A stretch of 34,534 bases of DNA. It comes from a virus (taxonomy: Duplodnaviria; Caudoviricetes). The stretch's first letter is position 1. Every line of letters begins with the position of its first letter. Positions 9,911 through 27,212 of this stretch are shown here, piece after piece. The notes beneath the pieces are model-generated. The model made no database searches. It saw only the letters and a list, made by a program, of their open reading frames with translations, and was not told where the DNA came from. Both the position numbers and the translations under genes were made by a program. The stretch covers positions 1 through 34,534 of the IMG/VR virus record IMGVR_UViG_3300012953_000096; one strand, 5' to 3'.

Positions 9911-9933
9911 AGTAAATTATTGAAGGAGATAAC

Positions 9934-10944: not shown

Positions 10945-11248
10945 CATCAAAGACAAATACACCTTTGTTACAAATGATGATAACCCTTGGACTTGTGTTG
11001 GAATCAGGGGTGGTAAATACGATGGTGTAGTATATAAATATGGAAAGGTAACTCTACCAGAAGATGGTACAGAAAATAAGGATGGTTCCTTTCCTTTTCG
11101 TTTTGAATATGATATAATTGATCCTAACGGTTTATCTAGAGAATTCTTTACAGATGATTTCTTTACTCTCATTGGAGATGTTCTTGTAGATATAATTGAT
11201 GATCAAATAAAGGAAGACAGTCTTGAATACATCAACACAGACAATTGA
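10937..11248 (+). CDS. Conserved acidic hypothetical protein between uvsX and gp41
   Basis: [13 protein letters not shown]...FEYDI; overlaps both neighbours. Occupies the position of T4 gp40, but homology is not shown. Confidence 0.7.
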
Positions 11249-12611
11249 ACGCACAGCACTAAGTCAGTTAGTTACTAACGAAGAATACGCTAGAAAGGTA
11301 CTCCCTCATATGAAGGGAGATTACTTTTCTGATCGTACAGAAAGAACAATCTTTGAAGAGATTGAGAAGTTTGTAGATAAGTATCAGAAGATACCTACCA
11401 CCACATCTCTGGAGATTGAAGTCCAAAGTAGAAAGGACTTGAATGAACAGGATTACACCAAAGTAGTTGAGGTTATTAAAACTCTAAAGTCTACAGATGT
11501 AGATTTTGAGTGGTTGGTGGAAACCACAGAAAAGTTTTGCAAAGATAAGGCGGTATACAATGCAATTGTCGAAGGCATATCAATCATTGATGGAAAAGAT
11601 AAGAATAGAGGCCCAGATGCAATTCCGAACATTCTCACGGATGCCCTGGCTGTGGGTTTTGATAATCGTGTGGGTCATGATTATATCTTGGATGCAGACC
11701 CCAGATTCGAGTTTTATCATAGGGTAGAAGAGAAGATACCATTCGATCTAGAGTTTTTCAACAAGATCACGAAGGGTGGTCTTCCACCCAAGACATTGAA
11801 CATTGCACTTGCTGGTACAGGTGTCGGTAAGAGTTTGTTCATGTGTCACATGGCAGCGAACTGTTTAACACAGGGACGAAATGTATTGTACATTACTCTG
11901 GAGATGGCAGAGGAACGCATTGCAGAACGTATAGATGCGAACCTTATGAACATCTCTATGGAAGACCTACATAGTCTACCTAAACAAATGTTTGATAACA
12001 AGATTGAGAAGATCAAGAAGTCTACTTCTGGTACTCTTCTGGTTAAAGAATATCCTACTGCATCTGCTCATTCCTCACACTTTAGAGGTTTGTTGAAAGA
12101 ACTTGCGGTAAAGAAATCATTTAAACCAGACATTATCTTTATTGATTATCTGAACATATGTGCGTCATCAAGGTTTAAAGGGGCAGCAAATGTCAACTCT
12201 TATATGTACATTAAGTCAATTGCAGAGGAACTTAGGGGACTGGCAGTTGAAACGAATCTCCCAATTATGTCGGCAACACAGACCACCCGATCAGGATTTG
12301 TTTCTTCAGACATTGGTTTGGAAGATACGAGTGAAAGTTTCGGTCTACCAGCTACTGCTGATCTCATGTTTGCGCTCATTAGTAATGAAGAGCTCGATGA
12401 TCTTAATCAGATTGCAGTAAAACAGTTAAAGAACCGTTATAATGATCCTACAATAAACAAGAGATTTGTGGTAGGAATAGATCGTGCAAAGATGCGATTG
12501 TTTGATGTAAAAGCGTCAGAACAAAATGATCTAGTTGATGCAAACCAATCTGATGATTTTTCTGAACCTGTATTTGATAATACAGAGATTGGACAACAGG
12601 AATGGAACTAA
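11223..12611 (+). CDS. gp41: Replicative DnaB-like helicase
   Basis: LAGTGVGKS, YITLEMAEE, IDYLNI, SATQTTR, TSESFGLPATAD, KQLKNRY. Confidence 0.96.
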   Translation: MNTSTQTIERTALSQLVTNEEYARKVLPHMKGDYFSDRTERTIFEEIEKFVDKYQKIPTTTSLEIEVQSRKDLNEQDYTKVVEVIKTLKSTDVDFEWLVETTEKFCKDKAVYNAIVEGISIIDGKDKNRGPDAIPNILTDALAVGFDNRVGHDYILDADPRFEFYHRVEEKIPFDLEFFNKITKGGLPPKTLNIALAGTGVGKSLFMCHMAANCLTQGRNVLYITLEMAEERIAERIDANLMNISMEDLHSLPKQMFDNKIEKIKKSTSGTLLVKEYPTASAHSSHFRGLLKELAVKKSFKPDIIFIDYLNICASSRFKGAANVNSYMYIKSIAEELRGLAVETNLPIMSATQTTRSGFVSSDIGLEDTSESFGLPATADLMFALISNEELDDLNQIAVKQLKNRYNDPTINKRFVVGIDRAKMRLFDVKASEQNDLVDANQSDDFSEPVFDNTEIGQQEWN

Positions 12612-13087
12612 AGGAACATGTGGGTTTACATAGATTCGACTATGAATTTGATAGAGAACGTCTATTAACAGAAGCTAAGATAGAAAAGGGTTACGAACCA
12701 TTTGTAGACCCCCTTACTAAAAAAACAATCCATGATTGGTTGATAAAACATGTTGTATGGGAACTCAACTGCAATACACCTTATGCCTTAGAGATTGCAG
12801 AACATTTTAGACAATTGACAGGATTCCGTTGTAAACCTAGATTTTATGATCAAAAGGCAGACTTTGGACTACCTTATCACAAAGATCGTGGAACCGAATG
12901 TTCTATCAACTTTGTTCTATCAGAAGACCCTGATCCTATATCATTTTTAGATGGTGAACTTACATATACGGTTGGTTTATTGAACACTCAAGTTGAACAT
13001 GCTGTATTTGCAACTAAACAAAGATATCTATTTAAACTTAGTTTTTTTGATAATACTTTTGAAGAAGTGAAAGATAAACTCTCCTAA
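12602..13087 (+). CDS. Cupin / 2OG-Fe(II) oxygenase-like protein
   Basis: PYHKD...SINFVL...LLNTQVEHAV...RYLFKLSF gives an HxD...H...R arrangement. Confidence 0.6.
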   Translation: MELKEHVGLHRFDYEFDRERLLTEAKIEKGYEPFVDPLTKKTIHDWLIKHVVWELNCNTPYALEIAEHFRQLTGFRCKPRFYDQKADFGLPYHKDRGTECSINFVLSEDPDPISFLDGELTYTVGLLNTQVEHAVFATKQRYLFKLSFFDNTFEEVKDKLS

Positions 13088-13107
13088 ATAGTATAAATTA
13101 TAATAAA
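13084..13107 (+). promoter_or_regulatory. Possible late promoter(s) heading the late block
   Basis: AT-rich gap with CTAAATA, TATAAATT and ATAAAT variants of T4 TATAAATA, before SD GGAG. Confidence 0.45.
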
Positions 13108-13119
13108 TGGAGAATTTGG

Positions 13120-14229
13120 ATGCCTTTGCAAAGTTATATACGTCAGCTCAATCCCAGAGATGACACATATATCCCTCATATAGACAAAGTACAAACCCTG
13201 TTAGAACGTGTTGATACAACTCTTAATGCGTCAATAACAGAGTTATTTCCATGTCTAGCGTTTAATAGTAAATTTAAACCTACATCTATAGAAGATTTTA
13301 AGAAGTTTCTTTATACATTAAATTTAAATAGTAATAAGATAAAGGCATCTTATGATAGAAAAGATGCTGCTTCTGCAAAATTAGTCATAGAAAAACTACC
13401 CTCTATGAAAGAAAAATTTCTCAAAGACAAAATGAGTAATGCTATAGGTATTACGAATTACTTATATGATCTTCATAGAACCAAACCAATTAAAAATGTT
13501 GTTTGGGGTTATCGAGCAAAACCAAAAGGTATTCCAAACAATCATGCTGGTGACATTTTTGTATTCTTTAGGAATGGAGAAAAGATAGGTGTCAGTCTTA
13601 AAGCGGGAACTGCAAAATCTAAAGAACCATTAAAAAATACTTATGTTGGAACTCAATATAAAAATCTTGGTGTACCTACAGATAAACTAGAAGCAGCTTT
13701 ATGGGATAGAGTATATTCTAAAGTGCCTGGTGTAAAAGATATTGCAAAGAAAACTAATTTTGTAAAGAACAAAGAAGTAACACAGTTATACGTAGACCAC
13801 TATGTTGAAAACCAAACTGAAGCAGATGAATTATACAAAGAAATGTTAGTTGTCTGTAGAGAACATATGTGTGATGTATTGAACAGCATGAATATAGATG
13901 ACTTTAAGAATTGGGTACAAGAGACATTTAACCTACAAAGAAAGGGTGATGAAGTTCCTTTGATAATGGTTAAGGCAGTAGGAAACAAAGCAGAACAGAA
14001 AGGTGATGATATCGTTGATATGATACCTATGATCACTAAACATTATGCATATTTGAATAAAAGTTCTGTACAAGAGTACTTAATTGATATACACTCTCCA
14101 GATGATAAGAAAACATTAAAGATGACTATTCGTTCTGACTCTGGTGTAAGACCAGAAAAGGGTACGAGTGGACAGGGGAGACTAGGACAGTACTTGCAAC
14201 TTAAAATGCAATACAGTGGTGTATTATGA
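13120..14229 (+). CDS. PD-(D/E)xK restriction-endonuclease-like protein
   Basis: N-terminal helix ITELFP and AGDIFV...IGVSLKAG (D...S-x-K catalytic variant). Confidence 0.6.
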   Translation: MPLQSYIRQLNPRDDTYIPHIDKVQTLLERVDTTLNASITELFPCLAFNSKFKPTSIEDFKKFLYTLNLNSNKIKASYDRKDAASAKLVIEKLPSMKEKFLKDKMSNAIGITNYLYDLHRTKPIKNVVWGYRAKPKGIPNNHAGDIFVFFRNGEKIGVSLKAGTAKSKEPLKNTYVGTQYKNLGVPTDKLEAALWDRVYSKVPGVKDIAKKTNFVKNKEVTQLYVDHYVENQTEADELYKEMLVVCREHMCDVLNSMNIDDFKNWVQETFNLQRKGDEVPLIMVKAVGNKAEQKGDDIVDMIPMITKHYAYLNKSSVQEYLIDIHSPDDKKTLKMTIRSDSGVRPEKGTSGQGRLGQYLQLKMQYSGVL

Positions 14230-15470
14230 TAGGATTTAAAGAGTTAATAACAGAGGATAAGGCAGGGAAGAACCTTCACCTTGAACACCTTGAGGATGAG
14301 ATAATCAACTTCGGTGTCGAGGGTGGTAGAGCGGCGATTAATTTCTTACGCTCCCTTAGAGATATGCTTGCTGGTGCAAGTCGTTCTTCCGTAAATATGA
14401 CAGTTAAATGGGATGGAGCGCCTGCAATTTTTGCTGGTGTAGACCCAGAGGATGGTAAGTTTTTTGTTGCGAAGAAATCAGTTTTTAATGTGAGCCCGAA
14501 ACTCTATAAGACAGAGGGAGAAATAGATGCTGATTTATCTGGAACACTTAATTCAAAGTTTAAAGTCGCACTTAAAGAGTTTTCTAAGTTGGGTATCAAA
14601 GGGGTACTCCAAGGTGACCTCATGTTTACCGATGATGTCGAGACTTCAAAGATCGAGGGTAGTTCATACTATACTTTTCAGCCTAATACTATTGTTTATG
14701 CTATACCAGTGGATAGTGAATTAGGTAAGAGAATTAGAAGTGCAAAAGTAGGAATAGTATGGCACACCACATATACAGGTAGTGCGTTACAAGACATGAA
14801 GGCATCATTCGGTGCAAATATATCTAGTCTTAATAAAGTATCAAGTGTGTGGATGGATGACGCAACATACAAAGATGCGTCTGGTAAAGCAACCTTTACA
14901 GAAAAAGAAACAACAGTTATTACGAAGTCTTTGTCAGACACAGGTAAGACATTTCAAAAGATTAATGCAAACCAGTTACGTTCATTCCTAAAGTTACAGG
15001 ATAGTATGAGTGGAACACTTGCTAGTGCATCACTTAAAACATACAATAATAGTAAAGTGCGAGCAGGAGAGAAGATCAAGAATCCTGCTTCTCATGCAAA
15101 AGGTTATGAGAAGTGGGTTTCTGATTCTATCCAGAAACAGATAGATAAGGCAAAATCCCCTGCTGGTAAGAAGAAATACGAGACTATACAGAAAGAGTAT
15201 GTAAGAGAGGTGAAAAAACACACAAGGAACCTAATACAGATCATTACGTTCCAAAATCTACTGGTTGATGCGAAGATGCAAATCGTAAAAAAACTAAATA
15301 GTGTTAAGCAGTTAACGGATACATTTATCAAGACTGCGAATGGATTTAAGGTAACAAACCCAGAGGGTTTTGTTGCTATTGATAGAGTGAGTGGAAACGC
15401 TGTTAAACTAGTAGATCGTATGGAGTTCTCGTTTAACAACTTCACCGCTATAAAGGCATGGGACAAATGA
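14226..15470 (+). CDS. DUF6267-like protein with ligase-superfamily nucleotidyltransferase motifs
   Basis: KNLHLEHLED; KWDG (motif I), QGDLMF (III), EGFVA (IV), AVKLVDR (V). Confidence 0.7.
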   Translation: MIGFKELITEDKAGKNLHLEHLEDEIINFGVEGGRAAINFLRSLRDMLAGASRSSVNMTVKWDGAPAIFAGVDPEDGKFFVAKKSVFNVSPKLYKTEGEIDADLSGTLNSKFKVALKEFSKLGIKGVLQGDLMFTDDVETSKIEGSSYYTFQPNTIVYAIPVDSELGKRIRSAKVGIVWHTTYTGSALQDMKASFGANISSLNKVSSVWMDDATYKDASGKATFTEKETTVITKSLSDTGKTFQKINANQLRSFLKLQDSMSGTLASASLKTYNNSKVRAGEKIKNPASHAKGYEKWVSDSIQKQIDKAKSPAGKKKYETIQKEYVREVKKHTRNLIQIITFQNLLVDAKMQIVKKLNSVKQLTDTFIKTANGFKVTNPEGFVAIDRVSGNAVKLVDRMEFSFNNFTAIKAWDK

Positions 15471-15850
15471 GTAACTTATCAGACCTATACGAAAGAACGG
15501 TTAACGTAGTTCAACGTAGGAAACAAGCACGTAGAATGGCACGATTAGCGAAGTCTGCTTCATTTAAAATGAAGAAGAAACGATCTGCTCTACGTAGACG
15601 ATCCCCAGAAAAAATTTCAATCCTTGCTCGTAAACAGGCTATAAAGATGTTTCGGGATAAATTCTATCCCGGCTATAACAATATGGCATTTGCACAAAGA
15701 GTTAAGGTAGATCAAATGTTGATGCAAAAGCATGGGACTCGTATAGATAAGGTTGCAAAAAAGAAGGCATTGATCCTCAAGAAAGGTGAATCCGAAAGGA
15801 TTTCAAAGGCGAGAGAAGCAATGTCTGGGAGTGTTCATGATGACGATTAA
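15467..15850 (+). CDS. Highly basic helical protein (putative internal head / DNA-binding protein)
   Basis: RRKQARRMARLAKS...KKKRSALRRR. ATG overlaps the upstream stop. Confidence 0.7.
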   Translation: MSNLSDLYERTVNVVQRRKQARRMARLAKSASFKMKKKRSALRRRSPEKISILARKQAIKMFRDKFYPGYNNMAFAQRVKVDQMLMQKHGTRIDKVAKKKALILKKGESERISKAREAMSGSVHDDD

Positions 15851-18134
15851 AGGTTTCAGAGAACTTACCGAAGCAAAAGGTGATACCGCAGTATTCACTT
15901 TCGGCAGATTCAATCCGCCCACAACGGGCCACGAAAAGCTTATAAATGCAGTAGCAAAACAACAGAAGAAGAACGCTGGTTCTAAGATGTATGTTTATCC
16001 TTCTCATTCTCAGGATGCGAAGAAGAATCCACTACCCCATGCAAAGAAAATCGCATATATGAGGAAGATGTTTCCTCGTTATAAAAGTACAATTGTTGCT
16101 GCAAAACCTAGAACTGCAATAGAAGTTGCAGTAGAACTACACAAGAAGGGTCATAAAGCTCTTGTTATGGTTGTTGGTTCTGATCGTGTACAGGAGTTTC
16201 AGAAGTTACTTGATACCTATAATGGAGTAGATGGTAGACATGGTTACTATGGTTTCGATAACATAGAAGTTATTTCTGCTGGAGAACGTGATCCAGATGC
16301 AGAAGGTGTAGAAGGAATGTCTGCATCCAAGATGCGAGCTGCAGCTGCAGACGGAGATTATAATTCATTTTCCCAAGGATTACCCAAAGGATTTAAAGAC
16401 GGTAAGGCAATCTACAGAGATGTTCGTGCCCAGATGGGTATTCGTGAAGAACGTGATATGGGCAACATGGATGATATGGAATCTAGAAGGGATGCATACC
16501 TCACAGGTAAACTATGGAACGTAGGAGAAAACGTAATAGTAAACGGAGTAGAAGGTGAAGTTGTACGCAAAGGAACAAACTATCTGTCCTATATGACAGA
16601 GGATGGTAAGGTACATAAGGCATGGTTACACCAGATAGATGAGAGAGATTATAAAAAAGAATATAAAAACTATCAAGGGAAACCAGAACAGATTGCAAGA
16701 CGATCCTCAAGAAATCAAGCACGTAGGGTTATGGGTGATAAGACTAAGGTTGGTATGGATGTAGGACATAAGGATAACAATCCTCTGAATAATGATCCTA
16801 AGAACTTGAAGAATGAAGACCCAACAAAGAATCGTAGAGAACCACGATTGCGTGAAGAAGATGAAGTTGATGAAAAATATGATAGCGATAAGTTTTTTGG
16901 TGGAAAAGGAACACCAGAACAAAGACTGCAACTTCTTAAACTTCAAAATAAAGCATTAAAACTTGGTATGGCGGGTACACCTAAACAAAAAGCAATTAAA
17001 AAAGAAATAGATGCATTACGAAAAAAAATGGGAATGAAAGTTTCAGAAGAACTTGATGAGGGTAAAAAACTCCCCCCACATCTTGCAAAGTTTTTTGATA
17101 AGAAAGGTAATCTAAAACCTGACGTAGCAAAACGTATGCAGAAGGGACGAAGTAAGAAAAATTGGAAAGATGTAACACCGAAAGGTTTCGGGCCCAGTGA
17201 GGATATGGATGCTCAACCACAGGATTCTTCAATTAAAGATAGACCAGGCACACAACCTAAAAAATACTACAAGGGATTAGACAAAGAAACTAAGAAGAAA
17301 CGTGATGCACACTTTAAGTCAAAGAAGGGTGGGCCTGCGCCTGGAGATAAAGGTGCAGAGACAAAACCATCTATACATACCAAGAAGTACCAACAAATGT
17401 ATGGAGAGGTTCTTGGTAGTAATGCATCACAACAGGATTACATAGACGATTTCATTAAGTCAGATGCACCGCAATTTAATGGCAAATCTAAAGAGAAACG
17501 CATTGCAATGGCAGTTGCTGCATACAATCAACGTAATGAAGACCTTGATGAGATGACATCTTCTATTCCTTGGTTAAACAGGGCAGCTGCAAAAATACAT
17601 CAAATTACGCATCCAAGGGGATATGAAAAACTTGTAAAAAGATATATGGATGGTATGAAGGATAAAGAACACAGAGATCATCCTGGCGCATGGGCAGCTG
17701 ACATTGCAAGAGACTATAGAGGTGTAGAAGGTCGAGACTTTGTACGATACATCAATAAACTGGTAGATAAAGGTAAACTACCTAAAGAATTAAAGGCAGA
17801 ATATGTAGAGGAGAGTAGAGTGTTTACGTTCAAAGAGTTCGTTGAGACTATAAATAGTAAAGAAAAATTAAATGAGTGGGGTGAAATTGAGGAAGCTGCA
17901 GAGTATCAAGGACGTAAGGTAACTTTGAACAAACCTTCTGCTGGTGATGTTAAGAAGTCTAAGGTATATGTTAGGAATGAAAAGGGTAATGTTGTAAAAG
18001 TTAACTTTGGTGATCCTAACATGACAATTAAGAAAGACAACCCTGCTAGAAGAAAAAGTTTTCGTGCGAGGCATAACTGTGAAAATCCCGGCCCTAAATG
18101 GAAAGCACGTTATTGGTCATGTAAGGCTTGGTAA
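15837..18134 (+). CDS. Modular polyprotein: HIGH-type (cytidylyltransferase-like) domain, HNH-like module and several small basic modules
   Basis: FTFGRFNPPTTGHEKL, VVGSDR, MSASKMR; DVGHKDNNPLNN...NL...NRR; C-terminal RKSFRARHNC...YWSCKAW. SD GGGAG before 15837. Confidence 0.8.
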   Translation: MMTIKGFRELTEAKGDTAVFTFGRFNPPTTGHEKLINAVAKQQKKNAGSKMYVYPSHSQDAKKNPLPHAKKIAYMRKMFPRYKSTIVAAKPRTAIEVAVELHKKGHKALVMVVGSDRVQEFQKLLDTYNGVDGRHGYYGFDNIEVISAGERDPDAEGVEGMSASKMRAAAADGDYNSFSQGLPKGFKDGKAIYRDVRAQMGIREERDMGNMDDMESRRDAYLTGKLWNVGENVIVNGVEGEVVRKGTNYLSYMTEDGKVHKAWLHQIDERDYKKEYKNYQGKPEQIARRSSRNQARRVMGDKTKVGMDVGHKDNNPLNNDPKNLKNEDPTKNRREPRLREEDEVDEKYDSDKFFGGKGTPEQRLQLLKLQNKALKLGMAGTPKQKAIKKEIDALRKKMGMKVSEELDEGKKLPPHLAKFFDKKGNLKPDVAKRMQKGRSKKNWKDVTPKGFGPSEDMDAQPQDSSIKDRPGTQPKKYYKGLDKETKKKRDAHFKSKKGGPAPGDKGAETKPSIHTKKYQQMYGEVLGSNASQQDYIDDFIKSDAPQFNGKSKEKRIAMAVAAYNQRNEDLDEMTSSIPWLNRAAAKIHQITHPRGYEKLVKRYMDGMKDKEHRDHPGAWAADIARDYRGVEGRDFVRYINKLVDKGKLPKELKAEYVEESRVFTFKEFVETINSKEKLNEWGEIEEAAEYQGRKVTLNKPSAGDVKKSKVYVRNEKGNVVKVNFGDPNMTIKKDNPARRKSFRARHNCENPGPKWKARYWSCKAW

Positions 18135-18859
18135 TGGATAAGAGACTGTACAATCAATTACAGGATGTTATTCCTAAGAGTCAACATTGTCAACGTAATT
18201 GGGACTTAACTAAGGAAGTTACAGATGAACAGATTGAAATTCTGAAACTTGCGGTTACACAATGTCCTAGTAAACAGAACAATGCTTTCTATTGGGTGCA
18301 TTTTGTTAAGAATAGGGAGTTAATAGAAAAACTCTATGATTGTACATGGGGTTATTATGATAAACCTGTGTATTCTGGAAAGAGAACAGAGGATCATATA
18401 CGGAGAAATGATCAGTGTTTAGCAAATGTATTAATTGTTTTTGAGAAATGGAATAACTATGAACTACACAGTATCGCTGGATATAGTGATAACGAAGATG
18501 TAATGACAGATGAACAAAATGACATAATGAATGAAAATGCACAACAATTAATTGATAGAGATCGTTGGATGGCTGTAGGTATTGCTGGTGGGTATATTAA
18601 TATGACAGCACACCAATTGGGATTAAAAACAGGGTATTGTCAGTGTTTTGGTAACCCACCAGAATCACAACCACAACCCGACATAAAATATCCTGAAGAA
18701 AGGATTAAAAATATTTTGGGATTAAAAGGAGAACCACTTATGTTTATGGGTGTTGGATACGCAAACGAAGGTGTAGAACACAGTCGAGGACATAATGAGA
18801 GAACTTTTAAATTCAATCCAAAAAGGAAACAACCTATTGTGACAAAGGTTTGGGAGTAA
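18134..18859 (+). CDS. Nitroreductase-family flavoprotein
   Basis: SQHCQRNWD...QCPSKQN...GIAGGYINMTAHQLGLKTGYC...MGVGY. Coupled by TAATG. Confidence 0.75.
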   Translation: MDKRLYNQLQDVIPKSQHCQRNWDLTKEVTDEQIEILKLAVTQCPSKQNNAFYWVHFVKNRELIEKLYDCTWGYYDKPVYSGKRTEDHIRRNDQCLANVLIVFEKWNNYELHSIAGYSDNEDVMTDEQNDIMNENAQQLIDRDRWMAVGIAGGYINMTAHQLGLKTGYCQCFGNPPESQPQPDIKYPEERIKNILGLKGEPLMFMGVGYANEGVEHSRGHNERTFKFNPKRKQPIVTKVWE

Positions 18860-18864
18860 GAAAA

Positions 18865-20607
18865 ATGAAAACAAGATATTCAAATAGTCTTTCAGAGGCA
18901 TATCATCAGATTCGTGAGTCAGCTGGACTTGCAGACAAGTCAAAGAAATCTGGTATCTCTGTAGGTATTCTGAAAAAGGTATATGATCGTGGACTTGCTG
19001 CATATAAGACAGGACATAGACCAGGCACTACCGCACCACAATGGGCGATGGCGAGGGTAAACTCGTTTATTACTAAAGGAAGTGGTACTTGGGGTGGAGC
19101 AGATAAGGACTTAGCAAAACAAGCGGGTGGAAAGAAAGAGGAAATGGAAGAAGATTTCTTTGATCCCATTACCGAAGCATGTTGGGCTGGATACAAACAA
19201 GTTGGTATGAAAGATAAAGGTGGTAAACAAGTTCCTAATTGTGTACCAGAATCCGTTTCAGAATGGGTACAGGTTGATCTTGATGAATACTATGAAATAG
19301 GTACAGATGAATACAAAGAATATCTCAAGAACTTAACTCCAGGCGAAACAAATAATGAACAACTTGCTAAGATTAAAGGTAATACTCCAGCAGCTGATGG
19401 ACGCCGTGCTGCAACTCAAGACGATATTGATAGAGCAGAGAAAAAGGGCGATAAAAAATTAGTCAAGAAACTTAAAGAAGAAAAGAAAAATTGCGGTTGT
19501 AATCAAGACCCATGTATAACATATGGTAGTCAAGAAGAAGGTGCAGCTGCAGATGCCCGTAGAGCAATCTCAAAAGATAAAGACCTACGTAGAGGAAAAG
19601 ATAGTGCAGACGATGATAATGATGCAACAGATGATGATGTAAAGGCAGCATCTAAAAATATAATGATGCAGTTAAGAAAGGCAGTATCCCTTAAAGGACG
19701 TTTTGCTGTTGAGTTTGGTGACGGTAAGAAGATTAAAATTCCTGCTAAGATTGCACAAGAAGTGCAAAGGAAGTTTAGTTCTATTCGTAGATCACAAGAC
19801 AAACAAAAGTTTCAAGCAAAAATTGCAAAGTCACATAAGAGTATGTTAGCGGCATTGAGAGAAAGTTACGATACTTCTCCTAGAAATTTAGTTAACCTTG
19901 ATGAGAGTGTTATCGACAAGGTAAAAGAGATTGATAAAAGGAAAGCTGCTAAAAAGATTGATGGTGTTATGGTTGATTCCTTTACTGCATCTGCGATTTC
20001 GCAAGTCTATGACAAGGTAAATGATAAAAACAAAAAGAGGATGGAGAAGTTGCCCATCAAGAAACTTGCTGATCTTGCCATGCAATTCATCAAACATGGC
20101 GAGGAGTTCGTTCCAGAAGAAGTTAAACTTGAAGAAGGTCGTATGAAAGAACTTCATGGTTATATCGAACAGGGTAAGTCTGCTGAGTGGATTGCAAAGA
20201 AGATGAAAGTGGATGTTAAGACAATTAAACAACTTATGAACTCTTATATTCCAGAACATGCAAATGCAAAACCACATCATCACCCACATCGTGAAGACGA
20301 TGAACTTGAAGAAAAGAAAAAGAAACCTGTTGTTTTTAAAGGAACACCAAAACAAATAAAACAACAGATGAAAAATCTAAAGAAAAAGGATAAGATTAAG
20401 ATAGGTGAAGGTGATGCAGAAGATCGTGTAAGAGATAAACAAAAAGATCAGTCTATGAGAGATCGTGATGCTAAAGAAAAAGAGATTGAACGTGCAAAAG
20501 TTCAAGATTTTCGATCTGCACAAAGAGATAAAAAGTCAGAAAGAGAACGTAAACAACGAAATGAAGTCCTAGACAGGGTTGCTTCAAAACTCAAAGGAGA
20601 GAACTAA
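18865..20607 (+). CDS. Modular Lys/Glu-rich polyprotein (putative internal head protein precursor)
   Basis: Modules LKKVYDRGLAAY...QWAMARVNSF; CWAGYKQVG...VPNCVP; CGCNQDPC; VDSFTASAI; HTH-like GKSAEWIAKKM, separated by Glu-rich linkers. Confidence 0.75.
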   Translation: MKTRYSNSLSEAYHQIRESAGLADKSKKSGISVGILKKVYDRGLAAYKTGHRPGTTAPQWAMARVNSFITKGSGTWGGADKDLAKQAGGKKEEMEEDFFDPITEACWAGYKQVGMKDKGGKQVPNCVPESVSEWVQVDLDEYYEIGTDEYKEYLKNLTPGETNNEQLAKIKGNTPAADGRRAATQDDIDRAEKKGDKKLVKKLKEEKKNCGCNQDPCITYGSQEEGAAADARRAISKDKDLRRGKDSADDDNDATDDDVKAASKNIMMQLRKAVSLKGRFAVEFGDGKKIKIPAKIAQEVQRKFSSIRRSQDKQKFQAKIAKSHKSMLAALRESYDTSPRNLVNLDESVIDKVKEIDKRKAAKKIDGVMVDSFTASAISQVYDKVNDKNKKRMEKLPIKKLADLAMQFIKHGEEFVPEEVKLEEGRMKELHGYIEQGKSAEWIAKKMKVDVKTIKQLMNSYIPEHANAKPHHHPHREDDELEEKKKKPVVFKGTPKQIKQQMKNLKKKDKIKIGEGDAEDRVRDKQKDQSMRDRDAKEKEIERAKVQDFRSAQRDKKSERERKQRNEVLDRVASKLKGEN

Positions 20608-21305
20608 TGGGTAAAAAATATATGGATACTAAAGTCGGCACCCTAGAAGAATCCGTTCTAGGTGTTTGGAAAGACGCATACATTCCTCAAACTGAAAAGG
20701 TAGTTGAAGAAGGTATTGAGGATTCACCAAATCCTGCTAACCGTCAACATATGTGTGCAAAGAATGTTGTACATGAAGAGTGGGGATTTGGTAAAACTGT
20801 TCCTACTATGCATGCTGAACCAGATGCAGAAGGTAATGTTGCTTGGTACGATGTAATGTTTGAACATGGTGTTGAGGAAAAGGTTTCTGTAGATGTTCTA
20901 GAGATCAAAGAAGCAAAAATGCATGCTCACTATGATCCTAAGAAAAAAGGACATGATAAAAAGATGAAAGCATCGTATGCTATGGAAGACAATTCTAACG
21001 ATGATTCTGATGATGGTGAAGGTATGGACAAGGTTCAACCTAAAGCACTGAAGAAGAAATTCAAAGATCGTAAAGATAAAGACATTGACAACGATGGTGA
21101 TGTAGACAGTTCTGATGAATATATTGATAAGAAGCGTAAAGCAATCAGTAAATCCATGAAAGAAAAGTGGACTGAAGCCCTCTTAAAAGTTAAAGAGAAC
21201 GAAGAAGACCCTTCTGATGAAGATGAAGATGAGAAGAAGTCTAAAGGTAAGAAGGCAAAAGTCGAAATCAATCCTGAGATTGAAACTGAAAACAAAAAGA
21301 AATAA
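20607..21305 (+). CDS. Hypothetical modular protein with a His-rich domain and a Dx[DN]xDG loop
   Basis: HMCAKNVVHEEWG...WYDVMFEHG; DKDIDNDGDVDSSD. SD AGGAG. Confidence 0.7.
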   Translation: MGKKYMDTKVGTLEESVLGVWKDAYIPQTEKVVEEGIEDSPNPANRQHMCAKNVVHEEWGFGKTVPTMHAEPDAEGNVAWYDVMFEHGVEEKVSVDVLEIKEAKMHAHYDPKKKGHDKKMKASYAMEDNSNDDSDDGEGMDKVQPKALKKKFKDRKDKDIDNDGDVDSSDEYIDKKRKAISKSMKEKWTEALLKVKENEEDPSDEDEDEKKSKGKKAKVEINPEIETENKKK

Positions 21306-21307
21306 TT

Positions 21308-21823
21308 ATGAAAAGTCTACTAGAACTTGTGGAGGCATCTAACGATGATCTCCCAGAAATATATTGTGATCTGGATGAAGTTTTAGTAGACTTCTTAAAG
21401 GGTGCAGGCAAAGCAGTCGGCGGTAGTTTTGCTACAGCTGAAAAAGAGGAAAGATGGAAGGCAATCAATCAAACTAAAGGTTTCTGGGCAAATCTTGATT
21501 GGAAACCAGGCGGTAAGAGATTGTATTCTTTCATATCTAGATATGATCCTCATGTTTTATCTGCATATAGTGGTCGTGATCCAACATCAAAGAATGGTAA
21601 AATGAAGTGGTTAGGAAAAAACACAAAATTTAGTCGTTCTAAGATACATTTGGTAATGAGATCGCAGAAAAAAGATTATGCAAAAACAGATGGGAAACCA
21701 AATGTACTGATTGATGATTATATTAAAAACATAAAAGAGTGGGAAAACGCTGGCGGAATCGGTGTCCATCACACAAATATAAACAAAACCCTTGGGCAAT
21801 TAAAGAAATTAGGGTTTAAATAG
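21308..21823 (+). CDS. HAD-family 5'(3')-nucleotidase-like protein
   Basis: IYCDLDEVLVDF (DxD), VLSA, K, LIDD, WENAGGIGVHH. Confidence 0.8.
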   Translation: MKSLLELVEASNDDLPEIYCDLDEVLVDFLKGAGKAVGGSFATAEKEERWKAINQTKGFWANLDWKPGGKRLYSFISRYDPHVLSAYSGRDPTSKNGKMKWLGKNTKFSRSKIHLVMRSQKKDYAKTDGKPNVLIDDYIKNIKEWENAGGIGVHHTNINKTLGQLKKLGFK

Positions 21824-21824
21824 T

Positions 21825-21832
21825 TATAAATA
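21825..21832 (+). promoter_or_regulatory. T4-type late promoter
   Basis: Exact intergenic TATAAATA upstream of SD AGGAG and a structural gene. Confidence 0.8.
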
Positions 21833-21868
21833 GAGTAATAAAGATACTCTAATAGAAGGAGAAAAACA

Positions 21869-22903
21869 ATGGGTTTATGGGGAGCTTCAGATGCTGCGGA
21901 AGACAAACCGAAGCATTTTACCACTGAACAAAAAGAAGAGATTGTTGCCAATGAACATGGATGGACGGTAAAAGCTGGTTCCACCTTGGCTGGTAATGAC
22001 AATACAGGTGCCGATCCAGAGATTTTGGTATTCATTCGTGGATTGGATAACAAACTTGGTGTTGGTGATATCGTAGGATTTGATTGGAATATATCAGCAT
22101 TTGATAAATCCGATGGTGGAACACTTAGTGTCACTGCTCACTTTAACGAAGCAGTTACAGTTACAGGCACACCACAATTAACGGTTACTAACGATAGTCG
22201 TTCAAACCACACACTTTCATATGCAAGTGGTTCTGGAACCAGTGCATTGACATTTACTCTTGCAATTGGTGCTGCTAACTCTGCTACAAGTGCAGACGAT
22301 GTGTTGTCTATTGCCGCTAACGCAATGGCACTTAATAGTGGTACGATTAAGGATACCTCTGGTGATTCGGTAAGTGCGTGGACTGCTGTAAACGATGCAA
22401 CTACTGGTGGAACGACATTCCCAACCGCAACCATTAATAATGGTAATGCATCATTTAAAACCACAGCCGCAGTTGGTGCTGTTACTGCTGGTATTCTTAC
22501 TGTTGACATTACGACTGCTGGTTCTGGTTACACAGATGAAGAAACTGCAACTATTGACTTAGGTACAGGTACAGACCCAACCTTAGAAATTTCTGGTACA
22601 ACTTGTACTGGTGCAACAATTAAAACTGCTGGTGCTTTGACTGCAATCACTGGTGTTACTGGACTTACCATTACTGGTGGTAGTTCTGGTGCATCTAATG
22701 GACGTTGTTCAGTCACAATGAAGGTAGTTAGTTGTGCAGTTAGTGCTGCTGGTGCTGAATATACTAGTCCTCCAACTGTTGATGTTGCTGCAACTGGTTT
22801 GGTTCAACCAGCAATTGAAGCAACAATGGTAGGACGTTCTGCAACAATTACTAATGCAACTGCAATAGGTACTGCTGCTGGAACGATTACGGTTACTGCA
22901 TAA
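21869..22903 (+). CDS. Virion structural protein (Thr/Ala/Gly-rich, beta-rich/Ig-like)
   Basis: MGLWGASD...; FNEAVTVTGTPQL, YASGSGTSALTF, GSGYT and GAEYTSPPTV repeats; late promoter upstream. Confidence 0.7.
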   Translation: MGLWGASDAAEDKPKHFTTEQKEEIVANEHGWTVKAGSTLAGNDNTGADPEILVFIRGLDNKLGVGDIVGFDWNISAFDKSDGGTLSVTAHFNEAVTVTGTPQLTVTNDSRSNHTLSYASGSGTSALTFTLAIGAANSATSADDVLSIAANAMALNSGTIKDTSGDSVSAWTAVNDATTGGTTFPTATINNGNASFKTTAAVGAVTAGILTVDITTAGSGYTDEETATIDLGTGTDPTLEISGTTCTGATIKTAGALTAITGVTGLTITGGSSGASNGRCSVTMKVVSCAVSAAGAEYTSPPTVDVAATGLVQPAIEATMVGRSATITNATAIGTAAGTITVTA

Positions 22904-22910
22904 TAACTGA

Positions 22911-22918
22911 TATAAATA
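22911..22918 (+). promoter_or_regulatory. T4-type late promoter
   Basis: Exact intergenic TATAAATA. Confidence 0.78.
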
Positions 22919-22948
22919 AATGAGATATTAAAAACGTGAGGTGAAAAA

Positions 22949-23188
22949 ATGAGTGGTTTAACTCAAAATGTTATTGAAGAAAAGAAACAAGCTTTGTTGG
23001 TAGATGTGGGTGAAGTACAAAAAGCACTTCAATCACTAAAACAACAAGAGACACAACAGATTGCTCTGTTGAACGCACTACAAGGTGCAATTCAACAGTG
23101 TGACGTTTTTCTACAAGACGAAAGAATTGTAGAGAAACAAGAAGAATTAGATAATGTATCTAGTGATGTAGAGAATAACGAAAGTTAA
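22949..23188 (+). CDS. Small coiled-coil protein
   Basis: Heptad-rich 79 aa (LLNALQGAIQQCD); SD GAGGTG. Confidence 0.7.
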   Translation: MSGLTQNVIEEKKQALLVDVGEVQKALQSLKQQETQQIALLNALQGAIQQCDVFLQDERIVEKQEELDNVSSDVENNES

Positions 23189-23239
23189 TATCTACAGTAG
23201 CATTCCGTCAATGGTGACGGTTAATATAGGAGAAGCCAA

Positions 23240-23722
23240 ATGGCTGATAAGAAAATTACAGCACTTACCGATCTTTCGACAGGTATTGCTGGTGCAGACC
23301 TTCTGCATGTGATTGATGATCCTACTGGAACACCAATCAACAAGAAAGTTTCGGTAACGAACTTTATTAATAACCTTCCTTCTTTTATCGGGTTCTCAAA
23401 CTCGTATGAAGATATTTCTGATGGAACACAGACTGCGATTTCTATTACGCATGCTGTTACGTTGCTTCAGACCGCTGGTTCTAACGCAACTACGCTTGCT
23501 AACGGTACAGTAATCGGACAGATTAAAGTTATCATCAATGATACTGATGGTGGTGCTTCCGAATGTACTCCTGCTTCCGTACTTGGTTACACCAACATCG
23601 ACTTCGAAGATGATGGTGACTCTGTTACACTTATGTGGACAGGAACCGCATGGGCAGTTATTGCTTCCGTAGATATTTCTACTGCTGCATCTGCTGGTAT
23701 TGTTGAGGTTGCAGACGACTAA
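23240..23722 (+). CDS. Virion structural / fibre-like protein
   Basis: MADKKITALTDL N-terminus; TLANGTVIGQIKVI...GDSVTLMWTGTAWAVI; SD AGGAG. Confidence 0.7.
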   Translation: MADKKITALTDLSTGIAGADLLHVIDDPTGTPINKKVSVTNFINNLPSFIGFSNSYEDISDGTQTAISITHAVTLLQTAGSNATTLANGTVIGQIKVIINDTDGGASECTPASVLGYTNIDFEDDGDSVTLMWTGTAWAVIASVDISTAASAGIVEVADD

Positions 23723-23734
23723 TAAGTAGTCTGG

Positions 23735-23770
23735 TAGAGGGGGGTTCGCCCCCCTCACCTCTATTTTTTT
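23735..23770 (+). terminator. Rho-independent terminator
   Basis: GAGGGGGG-TTCG-CCCCCCTC stem with UUCG loop, followed by a T7 run at 23764-23770. Confidence 0.85.
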
Positions 23771-23780
23771 GGAGATTAAG

Positions 23781-23972
23781 ATGGCAAGAGATGATGGTAA
23801 AAGATATGGTGCTGGTGGTAGTGTGTTACAAGAAATTGTAGAACCATCAGAAACAAAACCTCCAGTACGTAGGGGGATTAGAAAAAAGGCACAGATGTTA
23901 GAAGAGAGATTGCATGACAATGTTCCTTCTGATACAGAGCCAATGGAAGAAGAGAGCAATGAAAAAATTTAA
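23781..23972 (+). CDS. Small hypothetical protein
   Basis: SD GGAG then ATG 23781; 63 aa. Confidence 0.6.
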   Translation: MARDDGKRYGAGGSVLQEIVEPSETKPPVRRGIRKKAQMLEERLHDNVPSDTEPMEEESNEKI

Positions 23973-24381
23973 TTCATTTATCACAGAAGTCGTGGGAACA
24001 TCCCACCAAGACTTGGCAGTTGATAAAAATATAAATCCTACTGCATTTGCAAATCCAGAAGTTGTTAAGAAGTTAAATGCGTGGGTAGGACAGATCGCTG
24101 GTAGTTATGTTATGCCAGAAGAGGCTGTACACAAGTTACGTAGTTCTTTAATGAAAGTTGGATTGACCTTTGATGAAGTGCCTGTTATGGAAGGTAAAGG
24201 TTCTATTGACCTACCCCTAACATTATTCGGTGGACGTTTCGGAAAGGGTGTTGAAACCCCCCATAATGAATTTGAACAAGATGACGGAATTTCTCATATG
24301 CGAGAGGGTGGTCTTACTCTAGTCATTGGTCATGACATGAATGAAGATGGTTCAACAAGGTTAACTGCTAGTATTAAATAA
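23959..24381 (+). CDS. Hypothetical protein with a capsid-targeting-like leader
   Basis: MKKFNSFITE leader; LTLFGGRFGK...DDGISH. Confidence 0.7.
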   Translation: MKKFNSFITEVVGTSHQDLAVDKNINPTAFANPEVVKKLNAWVGQIAGSYVMPEEAVHKLRSSLMKVGLTFDEVPVMEGKGSIDLPLTLFGGRFGKGVETPHNEFEQDDGISHMREGGLTLVIGHDMNEDGSTRLTASIK

Positions 24382-24743
24382 TGTATGAAAAGATAACTGC
24401 TGAGAATGTTATGATGTTTGCTATTAAGCACTATGATAATCCTCAGTGTGAAGGAGAAAAAGAATTTCATGATGATATGAAGAGGTTTAAGTATATTAAA
24501 CGTCTACTACGCAAGTACAAAGACAGCAGTATACTTAAAGAAAGACTACTTCTTAATCATATTATCATACTAAACAATTTGTTTGGGCCGGAGGCTTGCG
24601 TGACCTTGTTACTCTTCAAGATTCAACGAGAGTATTGGGGAACACTCAAGTCTTTTTTATTATACCTAAATATGATAAGGGATGATGAATTACAGGAAGT
24701 AGAATCAAGTCAAGAGGTTCTAGACGTACTAAGGAAAATCTAA
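24381..24743 (+). CDS. Conserved T4-like phage hypothetical protein
   Basis: FAIKHYDNPQC...DMKRFKYIKRLL...ERLLLNHIIILNNLFG. Confidence 0.75.
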   Translation: MYEKITAENVMMFAIKHYDNPQCEGEKEFHDDMKRFKYIKRLLRKYKDSSILKERLLLNHIIILNNLFGPEACVTLLLFKIQREYWGTLKSFLLYLNMIRDDELQEVESSQEVLDVLRKI

Positions 24744-25330
24744 TGGGAAGAGCGATTGATTTATTCGTTACATACAGGTTTATTAAACTCTTAGTCACTC
24801 CGTTTAATAGAACGGATGCGTTTAAGAATGGTGTTATTGATGCTGACGGTAATCGTTTAGACAAAGACCTTAATACAATAGACGAAAAGAATTCTTATAC
24901 GGTTTTACACAAACTCGTATTTAATATCAAGAAAATATTTGGAAAAGTGCCTGGACTTAGAACTAAGTTGGGAACTTATGCTGCAGCTCTGTTTCTACTT
25001 AAAGATACATTCAAAGAACATGTCGAAGACCCCGATGTTTTTGAGAAGGAGTTTATGAAGTATCTTAAAGAAGAGGGTTACGAAATTGATGATAGTATAA
25101 GTGAAGAAGTTATTGGTTTCGGAGAGGTTCTACCTAAAGGTAGTTACACACTAGTTAACGACATTCTAAATGCAGAGGAAGAAGAGTTATCAGCAAGAAA
25201 GGGTGACAAGGTATTCGCATATGACGATGAACCACCCATAGATACTATTCTTGGTGTTGACATATTCCCTGTAGTACATTTAAAAACACAAGAAAAAATA
25301 TATGTAGGATTGGAGGATTTGAAACAATGA
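24743..25330 (+). CDS. Conserved T4-like phage hypothetical protein
   Basis: AIDLFVTYRFIKLLVTPF...GVIDADG...HKLVFNIKK...YAAALFLLK. Confidence 0.75.
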   Translation: MGRAIDLFVTYRFIKLLVTPFNRTDAFKNGVIDADGNRLDKDLNTIDEKNSYTVLHKLVFNIKKIFGKVPGLRTKLGTYAAALFLLKDTFKEHVEDPDVFEKEFMKYLKEEGYEIDDSISEEVIGFGEVLPKGSYTLVNDILNAEEEELSARKGDKVFAYDDEPPIDTILGVDIFPVVHLKTQEKIYVGLEDLKQ

Positions 25331-25902
25331 AAACATGGAAAGAAGTATCACCTTACTCTGGACAAGACATTGAGGAAGATGCCCCTGCCAACTCAGTTGC
25401 TGGTGGTGGTGTTTCAATGCCCCCTGATGCGATACAAGATAAAAAGAAAAGAAAACCACTTATAGATGCTAGAACTTCTGCATACAAGGCACATCGTACT
25501 AAACTCAAAGCACAACGTATTAGAAGGCAAGAGAGTAGACGTAAGAGTTCTATTATAGGTGAACAGTTAGAAAAGATTGATAATTTGTTTGAGTACGCTG
25601 GTACTGGTTATGATAAGGTTGCTCCTATGGCAGACCTTAATGCTTCTAAGTCATCTACTGGTTACGAGTTATACCATAAGACTTTTAGTGGTGCTATGCA
25701 ACATGCATATAAGTTTGCAAAGAGTAAAGGTTACATTGTAGATAAGTCTGACATTGATAACAAAGTTGCAACAGGGCCCAAGAAACCTTCTTCTGGTAAA
25801 ACGAATAGTTATACTCTTGGAACAAACAAGAAGCAGAAGGTTCAAATTCAAGTTGCAAATCTAGACAATAAGAGATATGAGTTGAATATGTACATCAGCT
25901 GA
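25327..25902 (+). CDS. Two-module basic protein (putative internal head protein)
   Basis: MKTWKEV...IEE|DAPANSV leader; C-terminal YHKTFSGAMQHAY...RYELNMYIS module. Confidence 0.65.
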   Translation: MKTWKEVSPYSGQDIEEDAPANSVAGGGVSMPPDAIQDKKKRKPLIDARTSAYKAHRTKLKAQRIRRQESRRKSSIIGEQLEKIDNLFEYAGTGYDKVAPMADLNASKSSTGYELYHKTFSGAMQHAYKFAKSKGYIVDKSDIDNKVATGPKKPSSGKTNSYTLGTNKKQKVQIQVANLDNKRYELNMYIS

Positions 25903-26510
25903 TGTCGAAGGTTGAGCAATATTGGGAGTTAGACCCCAACAGAAATAATATGGGAAAGTTTGATCGTCAAAAACATTTTGAGATTGCAACTAAAGCATAT
26001 TGGGAAGACATAGATGATTGTTGGAAGTTTATCATTAACTGCAAAGAACATCTTGAAATACTGAAAGAGTGTAAGGAATTTACTGATTACAAACCTTGGA
26101 TAACGGACGCTGTAAGAGCAAAAAAAACAAAGTGGACTAGGTTTGGTAAAATGGGATTTCATGGAAGGATGGTTGCCTTTCCTGATTACGATACTTTCCC
26201 AACATTTATGAAATGGTTTGATCAACATAAAGACACGTATGGTTGGCAACACCCAGAGATTAGATTATTGAAGTCTGGTTCTATGATTGTACCACATACG
26301 CACGATAAAGATACTCCAAAGTATATCTATAATATGAGTATAAACCATCCAGAGGGGTGTCGATTTGGGGTACAACCAAATGGTCAAGTACCATATACCT
26401 CTGGAGATGTATACAGAATAAATTCTTGGAACGTGCATTGCGTATGGAACAATTCTGATGTTGATAGGTATCATGTAGTGTTAGGTTCTAAAGAGAAAGG
26501 AAGTAGATAA
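25902..26510 (+). CDS. Asp/Asn beta-hydroxylase-like 2OG-Fe(II) oxygenase
   Basis: IVPHTHD...SINHPEGC...HCVWNNSDVDRYHVV. Confidence 0.7.
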   Translation: MSKVEQYWELDPNRNNMGKFDRQKHFEIATKAYWEDIDDCWKFIINCKEHLEILKECKEFTDYKPWITDAVRAKKTKWTRFGKMGFHGRMVAFPDYDTFPTFMKWFDQHKDTYGWQHPEIRLLKSGSMIVPHTHDKDTPKYIYNMSINHPEGCRFGVQPNGQVPYTSGDVYRINSWNVHCVWNNSDVDRYHVVLGSKEKGSR

Positions 26511-26989
26511 TGATTAAAGTTTATATGTTTCTGTTGATTATGGGTATTATTGGTGGTGTTGGTTATGGTGGATATATCTACTATAAAGATACACAACAGC
26601 GTATTCAAACACTTGCAGAAAATAGTGCAAAGTTAGAACAGGCTGCAAAGATACAAGAAGAGACTATCAACACCATGATTGAAGACCGTGAAAAGTTAGA
26701 CGAACTAAATAAAGGATTACAGAAAGAATTACAGACTGCCACAAGGTATGGTGATCAGTTACGTAATACTTTAAGAAAACACAATTTAACACACTTGGCA
26801 AATAAACGTCCAAGTTACATAGAAAAGAAGATGCAAAATGCGACTAATAGGTTATGGGACTGTCTTGCTGATGTCACTAACCCTGATGGGGTGTGGGATG
26901 ATGCCGGAACCAAAAGTGGTAACTGTAACAAAAACAGTGCGAACTCAGGTTCCAGTTCAAGCAAGACCACAACAAGTCCAGTTAAATGA
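26510..26989 (+). CDS. Inner-membrane spanin (Rz-like)
   Basis: N-terminal transmembrane helix followed by a long coiled coil; overlaps a lipoprotein gene. Confidence 0.75.
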   Translation: MIKVYMFLLIMGIIGGVGYGGYIYYKDTQQRIQTLAENSAKLEQAAKIQEETINTMIEDREKLDELNKGLQKELQTATRYGDQLRNTLRKHNLTHLANKRPSYIEKKMQNATNRLWDCLADVTNPDGVWDDAGTKSGNCNKNSANSGSSSSKTTTSPVK

Positions 26990-27212
26990 TGTAAAAATCT
27001 GGGTAGTTTCGAAAGAAAACTACAAAGAATTTGTAAAAGAGTATGCAAAGAAAAACGGTGGTGATTCTTATATTGCTATTTCTGTGAAGGACTATGAGAA
27101 TTTATCATTAAATTTTGCAGAACTTAGACGATACATCGAACAACAGAAACAGATCATTATCTATTACGAGAATGCTGTTACTGTAGATGATAAAGAAGAA
27201 GGGAAAAAATAA
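26838..27212 (+). CDS. Outer-membrane lipoprotein spanin (Rz1-like)
   Basis: Signal peptide MRLIGYGTVLLMSLTLMG|C with lipobox; starts inside the i-spanin gene in another frame. Confidence 0.75.
   Translation: MRLIGYGTVLLMSLTLMGCGMMPEPKVVTVTKTVRTQVPVQARPQQVQLNDVKIWVVSKENYKEFVKEYAKKNGGDSYIAISVKDYENLSLNFAELRRYIEQQKQIIIYYENAVTVDDKEEGKK

Follow-up and report, generated by a model that had tools for sequence, protein, structure and literature searches.

The window analysed here is the whole of a viral assembly of 34,534 bases (IMG/VR record IMGVR_UViG_3300012953_000096), a fragment of a T4-like myophage that spans the sliding clamp to ribonucleotide reductase. Gene names along it follow presumed T4 homology, and other genes are called by the position of their first base. 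Between gp41 and gp61 this Melnitz-like marine myophage carries a late block of 16 genes, nine of which begin with a leader, an N-terminal peptide ending in hydrophobic-x-Glu (Phi-x-E). The block proteins are probably targeted to the prohead, trimmed specifically after Glu and ejected together with the DNA. Taken separately, the packaging and trimming of the leader-bearing proteins appear very probable, and ejection of the cargo into the cell is likely. Capsid targeting with cleavage after Glu is supported by the pattern of leader conservation, a late promoter, mimicry of a capsid junction and the virion proteomes of relatives.

In T4, the proteins IPI, IPII, IPIII and Alt are described as carrying a capsid targeting sequence that is cut by gp21 (PMC9958956, PMC5694885). 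T4-style leaders would likewise load the late-block proteins into the prohead, where a gp21-type protease would cut after the leader Glu and at internal Glu joints. The mature enzymes and small basic peptides would then travel into the cell with the DNA, which the peptides may neutralise or coat, as T4 IPII and IPIII may.

Leaders of the late block and their conservation

Seven leaders had been proposed in a preliminary description of this DNA, and all were found at the expected coordinates (14226, 15467, 15840, 18865, 21308, 23959, 25327). Those of 15467, 15840, 18865 and 23959 require an internal ATG rather than the start of the longest open reading frame (ORF). Two further leaders had been overlooked, at 13120 (29 residues, ending L-L-E29) and at 20607 (ending L-E-E15). 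The start codons of window genes were picked by hand; relatives of 15467, 15840 and 23959 begin at the same position or a few residues away. The seven block genes without a leader are 18134, 21869, 22949, 23240, 23781, 24381 and 24743.

While the leaders are real, the bare pattern [ILV]xE, which the preliminary description had treated as their distinguishing mark, is weak when taken alone. Within the first 12 residues it is found in 7/16 block genes and 6/32 others (p=0.07), within 17 residues in 9/16 and 7/32 (p=0.02), and within 30 residues in 11/16 and 14/32 (p=0.09). These counts were dropped as a leader test because they are too unspecific. A BLOSUM leader score built solely from residues 2-10 of T4 IPI and IPII, a type of check that had been proposed earlier, separated the block from the rest of the window (Mann-Whitney p=0.0099). 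Ranks 1-4 of the 48 genes are all held by block genes, and a score of at least 10 was reached by 4/16 block genes vs 1/32 others. Every one of the nine replication and nucleotide genes examined scored 7 or less, in agreement with the earlier claim that replication genes lack leaders. The score is a narrow test because it misses T4 Alt and gp24, which score 4-5. Clear T4-like leaders are those of 23959, 25327, 15840 and 14226, and the remaining ones are looser. In the window 15467, 18865, 20607 and 13120 score below 10, and their support therefore comes from relatives; 20607 is the least supported leader. Outside the block, the likely start of gene 8662-9273 scores 10.7, which may indicate a stray cargo gene or a false positive. 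The N-terminus of ribonucleotide reductase (29716-29757) includes a stretch that resembles the T4 leader core by chance but lacks the Glu site at its end.

Relatives were scored in a set of 184 related loci with 2029 distinct proteins, in which starts were assigned automatically. Scores of at least 10 were found in 31/37 relatives of 23959, 28/40 of 15840, 29/44 of 15467 and 19/50 of 14226, with lower counts for 21308 (10/53), 13120 (3/11), 25327 (3/33) and 20607 (0/11). Among relatives of leaderless genes there were none (primase 0/30, ribonucleotide reductase 0/11, DUF7207 0/42, spanin 0/36). Gene 18865 was left out as it has too few N-terminally aligned relatives, and 3/3 RegA relatives scoring at least 10 were discarded as an artefact, the automatic rule having picked an internal Met as the start. 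Across homologs the length and sequence of the leader vary but its end stays at the start of the domain. For DUF6267, the product of 14226, 150 representatives (37-79% identity) were collected and the anchor motif was placed in 136. A Phi-x-E site (Phi being L, I, V, M or F) lies within 14 residues upstream of the domain in 91/115 N-terminal and 20/21 internally fused copies, compared with 15% of body windows, and the last Glu stands 5-9 residues ahead of the domain motif in 105/112.

Scoring was also carried out genome-wide in Methylophilales phage Melnitz. Its 215 ORFs are led by four genes of the block together with gp230, a RimK-like ligase, and gp204, which lies between the portal and the protease; these six have the highest scores. 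The RimK-like ATP-grasp ligase of Melnitz has a strong leader, and proteins resembling it directly precede the 13120 slot in two loci (coordinates of this group: L003:40382-41431, L007:7768-8841, L059:7275-8342). Melnitz gp117 (L002:14603-15271), a P-loop kinase outside the block, has a leader and a late promoter.

The product of 25327 contains, directly after its leader, a copy of the maturation junction of the major capsid protein (MCP). Such a copy follows the leader Glu in 36/44 distinct orthologs. The mimic was paired with the MCP in three cultured phages; MCPs found in 3/10 uncultured contigs were not used, and the window has no MCP of its own. In each of the three, Melnitz, S-CREM2 and S-SZBM1, the junction segment matches the MCP better than any other scored protein of the same phage (rank 1 of 214, 152 and 61, respectively).

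Virion content was taken from published tables for S-CREM2 (PMC10665884, Table 3; 153 of ~219 ORFs scored, namely gp1-84 and gp131-199, with 11 structural proteins excluded) and S-SZBM1 (PMC9146016, Table 1; 62 ORFs scored), and statements on these virions refer to what the tables list. Among non-structural S-CREM2 proteins, 7/15 of those detected in virions scored at least 10 vs 9/127 of those undetected (p=2e-4), and cut-offs of 8 and 12 gave p=3e-4 and 2e-3. The 25327-type protein of S-CREM2 is virion-detected, as are homologs of 15840 in both phages (S-CREM2 gp154 and S-SZBM1 gp140; 33-36% identical). The virion-detected cytidylyltransferase of S-SZBM1 ranks third by leader score, and 18865 has one module in common with virion-detected S-SZBM1 gp139. 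Detection of an NMNAT-like protein is also reported for S-SCSM1 virions (PMC9602691). S-CREM2 gp6, gp13, gp14 and gp15 (L088:3837-13331) are all leader-bearing and virion-detected, and gp12 has a leader-like stretch at residues 17-26. An S77 (gp21-type) protease was found in 5/5 relatives; the window is a fragment without head genes.

As expected for T4-like internal proteins, a late promoter, recognised by its sequence motif, stands at the head of the block. TAAATA lies upstream of the 13120 slot in 38/41 related loci, vs 1/19 for gp41 and 0/26 for 15840. The late motif given for S-PM2 is NATAAATA (PMC2984593). Exact copies of TATAAATA in the window number 4 vs 3.3 expected by chance, and are informative by position only.

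The interchangeable slot at 13120

The most variable cargo, the predicted nuclease of 13120, had been overlooked when the preliminary description proposed a packaged enzyme kit. In L005, the closest relative of the window (DUF6267 94% identical), the promoter and the start of the leader are identical to those of the window. The two DNA sequences align over 9925-13202, stop just before the Glu codon and resume at 14226, the nuclease body having been replaced. The slot was followed in 44 genes preceding DUF6267 from 75 loci, together with the window and Melnitz, and the resulting 46 proteins form 11 blastp clusters. By eye, 39 of them have a long leader ending in Phi-x-E, 3 a short T4-type leader and 4 neither. 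Homologs of the window's mature body have either a long or a short leader, and Phi-x-E stands just ahead of the body in 98/103 distinct N-termini. On the DUF6267 tree the slot clusters require 24 changes (minimum 10, shuffled mean 27.6; 44 distinct rows), and L062 and L064 have different slot clusters beside near-identical DUF6267 genes. Instead of being unrelated, the proteins of different clusters may be remotely homologous. At L048:2286-3665 and L050:5523-6296 the slot ahead of DUF6267 holds unrelated proteins without the long leader.

The top three Foldseek matches of the 13120 body are HinP1I (E=1.2e-3 and 5.5e-3) and MspI (8.6e-3). Comparison in VIA gave Z 6.4 with a root-mean-square deviation (rmsd) of 4.5 over 194 aligned residues, and in language-model features the body resembles HaeIII-family proteins (0.96). 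Its homologs have an invariant D...S-x-K core (D145, S159, K161). Searches of Pfam with 24 slot proteins and of PADLOC with 12 gave nothing above cut-off. A nuclease-motif regular expression was rejected as a slot-wide test: it matched 20/45 slot proteins, compared with 17% of shuffled sequences, but not the slot protein of the window itself.

Neither in the window nor at any of the 15 loci listed by motif was a cognate methyltransferase seen adjoining the slot. Methylase-like genes are found several kb upstream of the slot in some loci. Between DNA polymerase and UvsX of the window, 6316-7644 and 9270-9899 have methyltransferase-like motifs, and relatives carry different methylase-like genes there. 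The window avoids restriction-like words on both strands (CGCG 0 vs 22.7 expected, GGWCC 0, AACGTT 0 vs 19.6), and several other 6-bp palindromes are absent from both strands. The avoided words were rejected as a clue to the nuclease target. They are mostly common to Melnitz, and because they are shared despite its different slot protein they more likely reflect host restriction.

The slot may deliver a sequence-specific DNase that cuts non-self DNA before phage gene expression and is swapped to change its target, a reading on which the odds are close to balanced with doubt slightly ahead. The targets would be the host chromosome or a co-infecting phage. For the slot only, and compatibly with packaging, the gene could instead encode a free-standing, selfish endonuclease propagated by intronless homing, the leader simply coming with the locus. 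A clean exchange bordered by conserved flanks, the scatter of clusters over the tree, the late promoter and the lack of a methylase gene beside the slot in the 15 loci listed all fit such an element. However, one body type occurs behind either leader, long or short, and each stops at the Glu site, suggesting that the leader is under selection; the nearest folds of the body are short-site restriction enzymes. Homing is considered unlikely.

Other cargo genes, rival explanations and genome context

The features of the block are collected in Table 1. Gene 14226 has its nearest cultured match in Melnitz (75% identical), where the block genes stand in an identical order, and 460 cultured phage records, mostly cyanophages, match its DUF6267 domain. 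The DUF6267 model has a predicted local distance difference test score (pLDDT) of 91.6, with residues 1-12 below 50. Its six best VIA rows are all RNA ligases (Z 7.5-8.2, rmsd 3.8-4.2, 167-200 aligned), among them NgrRnl (Z 8.2) and REL1 (8.1). K61/D63/G64, G130/D131, E380/G381 and K394 are conserved, and ligase motifs I (KxDG), III, IV (EGxV) and V (K) are present. The HIGH domain of 15840 scores 27 bits against Pfam CTP_transf_like (cut-off 21) and has the TxGH and SxSxxR motifs. In PDB sequence searches neither DUF6267 nor the HIGH domain gave a significant match (HIGH profile hits E>=0.048). In the HAD protein 21308 both motif-I Asp residues are retained in all 31 motifs counted. The earlier labels of ligase-fold nucleotidyltransferase, HIGH nucleotidyltransferase and HAD thus hold at the level of fold or family.

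Table 1. Features of the late block in the window (positions of the whole 34,534-base stretch)
Feature	Position	Strand	Remark
T4-type late promoter core, head of block	13084..13090	+	TAAATA upstream of gene slot
Long leader of 29 residues ending L-L-E, common to different slot proteins	13120..13206	+	residues 1-31 pLDDT<50
Predicted PD-(D/E)XK nuclease body, HinP1I/MspI-like, swappable cassette	13207..14229	+	
DUF6267, ligase-type covalent nucleotidyltransferase fold; leader 14226-14255	14226..15470	+	Pfam E=6e-105
Very basic small protein, 28% K+R; leader 15467-15493	15467..15850	+	
HIGH-family nucleotidyltransferase, then Lys-rich modules joined at Phi-x-E sites; leader 15840-15872	15840..18134	+	
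Nitroreductase-family gene, leaderless	18134..18859	+	Pfam; homologs only 3 of 2029 related-locus proteins
Lys-rich modular polyprotein, DUF5824 module first; leader to E18 (18918)	18865..20607	+	
Charged modular protein, variant leader to E15 (20651), weakest member	20607..21305	+	
HAD phosphatase, 5'(3')-nucleotidase-like; leader 21308-21334	21308..21823	+	PHROG 2643 E=9e-25
Two further late promoters (21825, 22911) and four leaderless genes (21869, 22949, 23240, 23781)	21825..23972	+	
Protein with the most T4-like leader (23959-23988)	23959..24381	+	leader score rank 1 of 48
DUF7207 and PHROG 18642, conserved leaderless block genes	24381..25330	+	
T4 gene 61.1 counterpart: leader to E17 (25377), then MCP maturation-junction copy, then basic modules	25327..25902	+	

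Fusions of DUF6267 with the HIGH domain occur in both orders (10/32 long representatives), are often leaderless and are found in S-PM2 too. Because the two are fused both ways and often leaderless, they are read as an older pair that was tagged only in some lineages. It is conceivable, but on the whole doubtful, that DUF6267 and the HIGH transferase, together with the HAD protein and, in some relatives, with a kinase, make up an older module for healing and sealing nucleic-acid ends, which this lineage has tagged for packaging. Only slightly less tentative is the combined picture, in which abundant marine T4-like phages carry a virion-delivered restriction-like nuclease, in a cassette that keeps its promoter and leader and swaps its body, alongside a packaged ligase/nucleotidyltransferase module.

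A large part of the block encodes modular proteins rich in Lys, not enzymes. Of the packaged enzyme kit in the preliminary description, capsid targeting with Glu cleavage is supported. Basic modules of 15840, 18865, 20607 and 25327 shuffle between proteins, and the long proteins (19-22% K+R) have 10-17 Phi-x-E sites each. Module starts lie near Phi-x-E in 23/46 cases for 15840 (null 19%), 24/51 for 18865 (27%) and 6/13 for 25327 (18%), adjacent positions in these counts not being independent. One module of 15840, residues 269-339, is flanked by Phi-x-E sites and weakly matches Pfam HNH_3 (E=0.0026, which does not reach the cut-off). Gene 15467 was considered as a homolog of T4 gp68 and rejected, as there is no similarity. 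The nitroreductase gene 18134 is likely an insertion. DUF7207 homologs are not listed in the S-CREM2 or S-SZBM1 virion tables; as a speculation, DUF7207 (24381-24743), which is conserved beside the 61.1-like gene in cyanophages, is a candidate assembly or loading factor. Directly after the block, 26510-27212 contains an overlapping Rz/Rz1-like spanin pair.

Several observations weigh against packaging and delivery of the block proteins, or against the folds assigned to them. Packaging and cleavage in this phage are predictions, and its own protease falls outside the 34.5-kb fragment. The 25327 segment of the window ranks the Melnitz MCP only 5th of 215. In S-CREM2, 8/15 virion-detected non-structural proteins score below 10, and the best two leaders of the 62 S-SZBM1 ORFs, gp191 and gp192, are missing from that phage's virion table. 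The authors of the S-CREM2 and S-SCSM1 reports admit possible co-purification (PMC10665884, PMC9602691). Among DUF6267 representatives, 21/136 have fewer than 10 residues ahead of the domain motif and are leaderless or truncated, and the domain has no leader in S-PM2 (a HIGH-domain fusion) and S-SZBM1. Phi-x-E sites E119 and E203 lie within the HIGH domain, and some such sites must therefore stay uncut. Module starts of 20607 are not enriched near Phi-x-E (2/7 vs 40% null). The fold match of 13120 is moderate, with no Foldseek hit at E<=1e-3, and the same holds for the DUF6267 model, whose best E is 0.16.

The purpose given to the kit in the preliminary description, injected counter-defence by rescuing NAD or mending tRNA or RNA that host nucleases have cut, is rather unlikely. 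The ligase fold, the weak NadR/NMNAT-type hits of the HIGH domain and the HAD gene in the block are compatible with it, as are the leader-bearing kinase Melnitz gp117, a kinase-DUF6267 fusion (P0133) and the fusions of DUF6267 and HIGH in both orders. Nampt is the partner in the NARP2 pathway. NAD rescue is nevertheless disfavoured, as Nampt (PF04095) was found in 0/5 relatives, a search in which 8/14 controls match and the window genome is incomplete, and the HIGH domain scores 20.8 on the NMNAT equivalog (NCBIfam) against a cut-off of 341. Also against the kit, several DUF6267-HIGH fusions are leaderless, the leaderless DUF6267 of S-SZBM1 is not in that phage's virion table, and the spread of DUF6267 over 460 cultured phage records fits a core function better than an answer to one defence system.

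Less probable still is that the block proteins are prohead core or filler, targeted and cut, then degraded or retained in the head like T4 gp22, gp67 and gp68, and never delivered. Melnitz gp204, at the gp67/68 position, bears the same leader, the long proteins are rich in Lys and Arg and in Phi-x-E sites, and 25327 copies a capsid junction. Against filler, folded domains with invariant catalytic residues follow the leaders, cytidylyltransferase peptides persist in mature virions according to the tables cited above, and a fast-swapped nuclease is hard to account for. It is highly improbable that the leaders arose by chance or from a general bias at the N-termini encoded by AT-rich late genes, since the commonness of the bare xxE pattern, the score of gene 8662 outside the block and the pattern's occurrence, with Met allowed as hydrophobic, in 38/42 leaderless DUF7207 homologs are outweighed by family-specific conservation, the fixed spacing of the last Glu and a leader score that tracks virion detection.

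Comparison with known systems

[quoted passage not shown] It also provides a simple criterion by which those hypothetical proteins that act ahead of transcription can be predicted in marine T4-like phages. The cultured relative Melnitz allows direct testing. Should the nuclease of the slot prove to be packaged and active, it would represent a ready-made phage DNase able to switch specificity, and the slot a rich source of new restriction-like enzymes. An infecting phage would then bring along an exchangeable weapon for cutting the DNA of its host or of rival phages. Searches of the open-access literature gave no paper that deals with leaders of this type in marine T4-like phages, with DUF6267 or with a nuclease cassette that is packaged; relevant material could exist in subscription papers (such as the proteomes of S-PM2 and Syn9) and in supplements.

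The block resembles T4 IPI-III and Alt in its leaders of about 10 residues ending in (I/L)-x-E, in the S77 protease of its relatives and in its non-structural cargo. It differs in having at least nine tagged genes in a single block, including enzymes and Glu-jointed polyproteins, a second leader type of 29 residues and a swappable predicted nuclease. The mature parts are also non-homologous, no block gene having a PHROG or Pfam hit to IPI-III or Alt. The block proteins work like T4 internal proteins without belonging to them by descent. T4 gene 61.1, like 25327, lies upstream of primase and combines a leader, a copy of the gp23 cleavage junction and a basic tail, but 25327 is longer (191 vs 54 residues) and has additional shuffled modules.

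The cytidylyltransferase/NMNAT proteins of cyanomyovirus virions (S-CREM2, S-SZBM1, S-SCSM1; PMC10665884, PMC9146016, PMC9602691) have a homologous HIGH domain, at the identity given above for the first two. As far as the accessible parts of these reports go, contamination is left possible and a targeting leader is not named; in the window the HIGH domain is fused to basic modules. DUF6267 shares the nucleotidyltransferase fold and motifs I, III, IV and V with NgrRnl, Trypanosoma REL1, fungal Trl1 and T4 Rnl2. Unlike these ATP-dependent RNA ligases, to which it is 12-15% identical, it has a long helical insertion and is frequently fused to a HIGH transferase. HinP1I and MspI are the top structural neighbours of the 13120 body, in which the D...S-x-K core is invariant, at 8-13% identity and Z 4.8-6.4; 13120 differs from them in being phage-borne, with a packaging-type leader and no adjacent methylase seen. 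The ipI locus of T-even phages is hypervariable, with a conserved leader and exchangeable cargo. The 13120 slot differs from that locus in that its cargo is a predicted nuclease of 35-60 kDa and not a small nuclease inhibitor.

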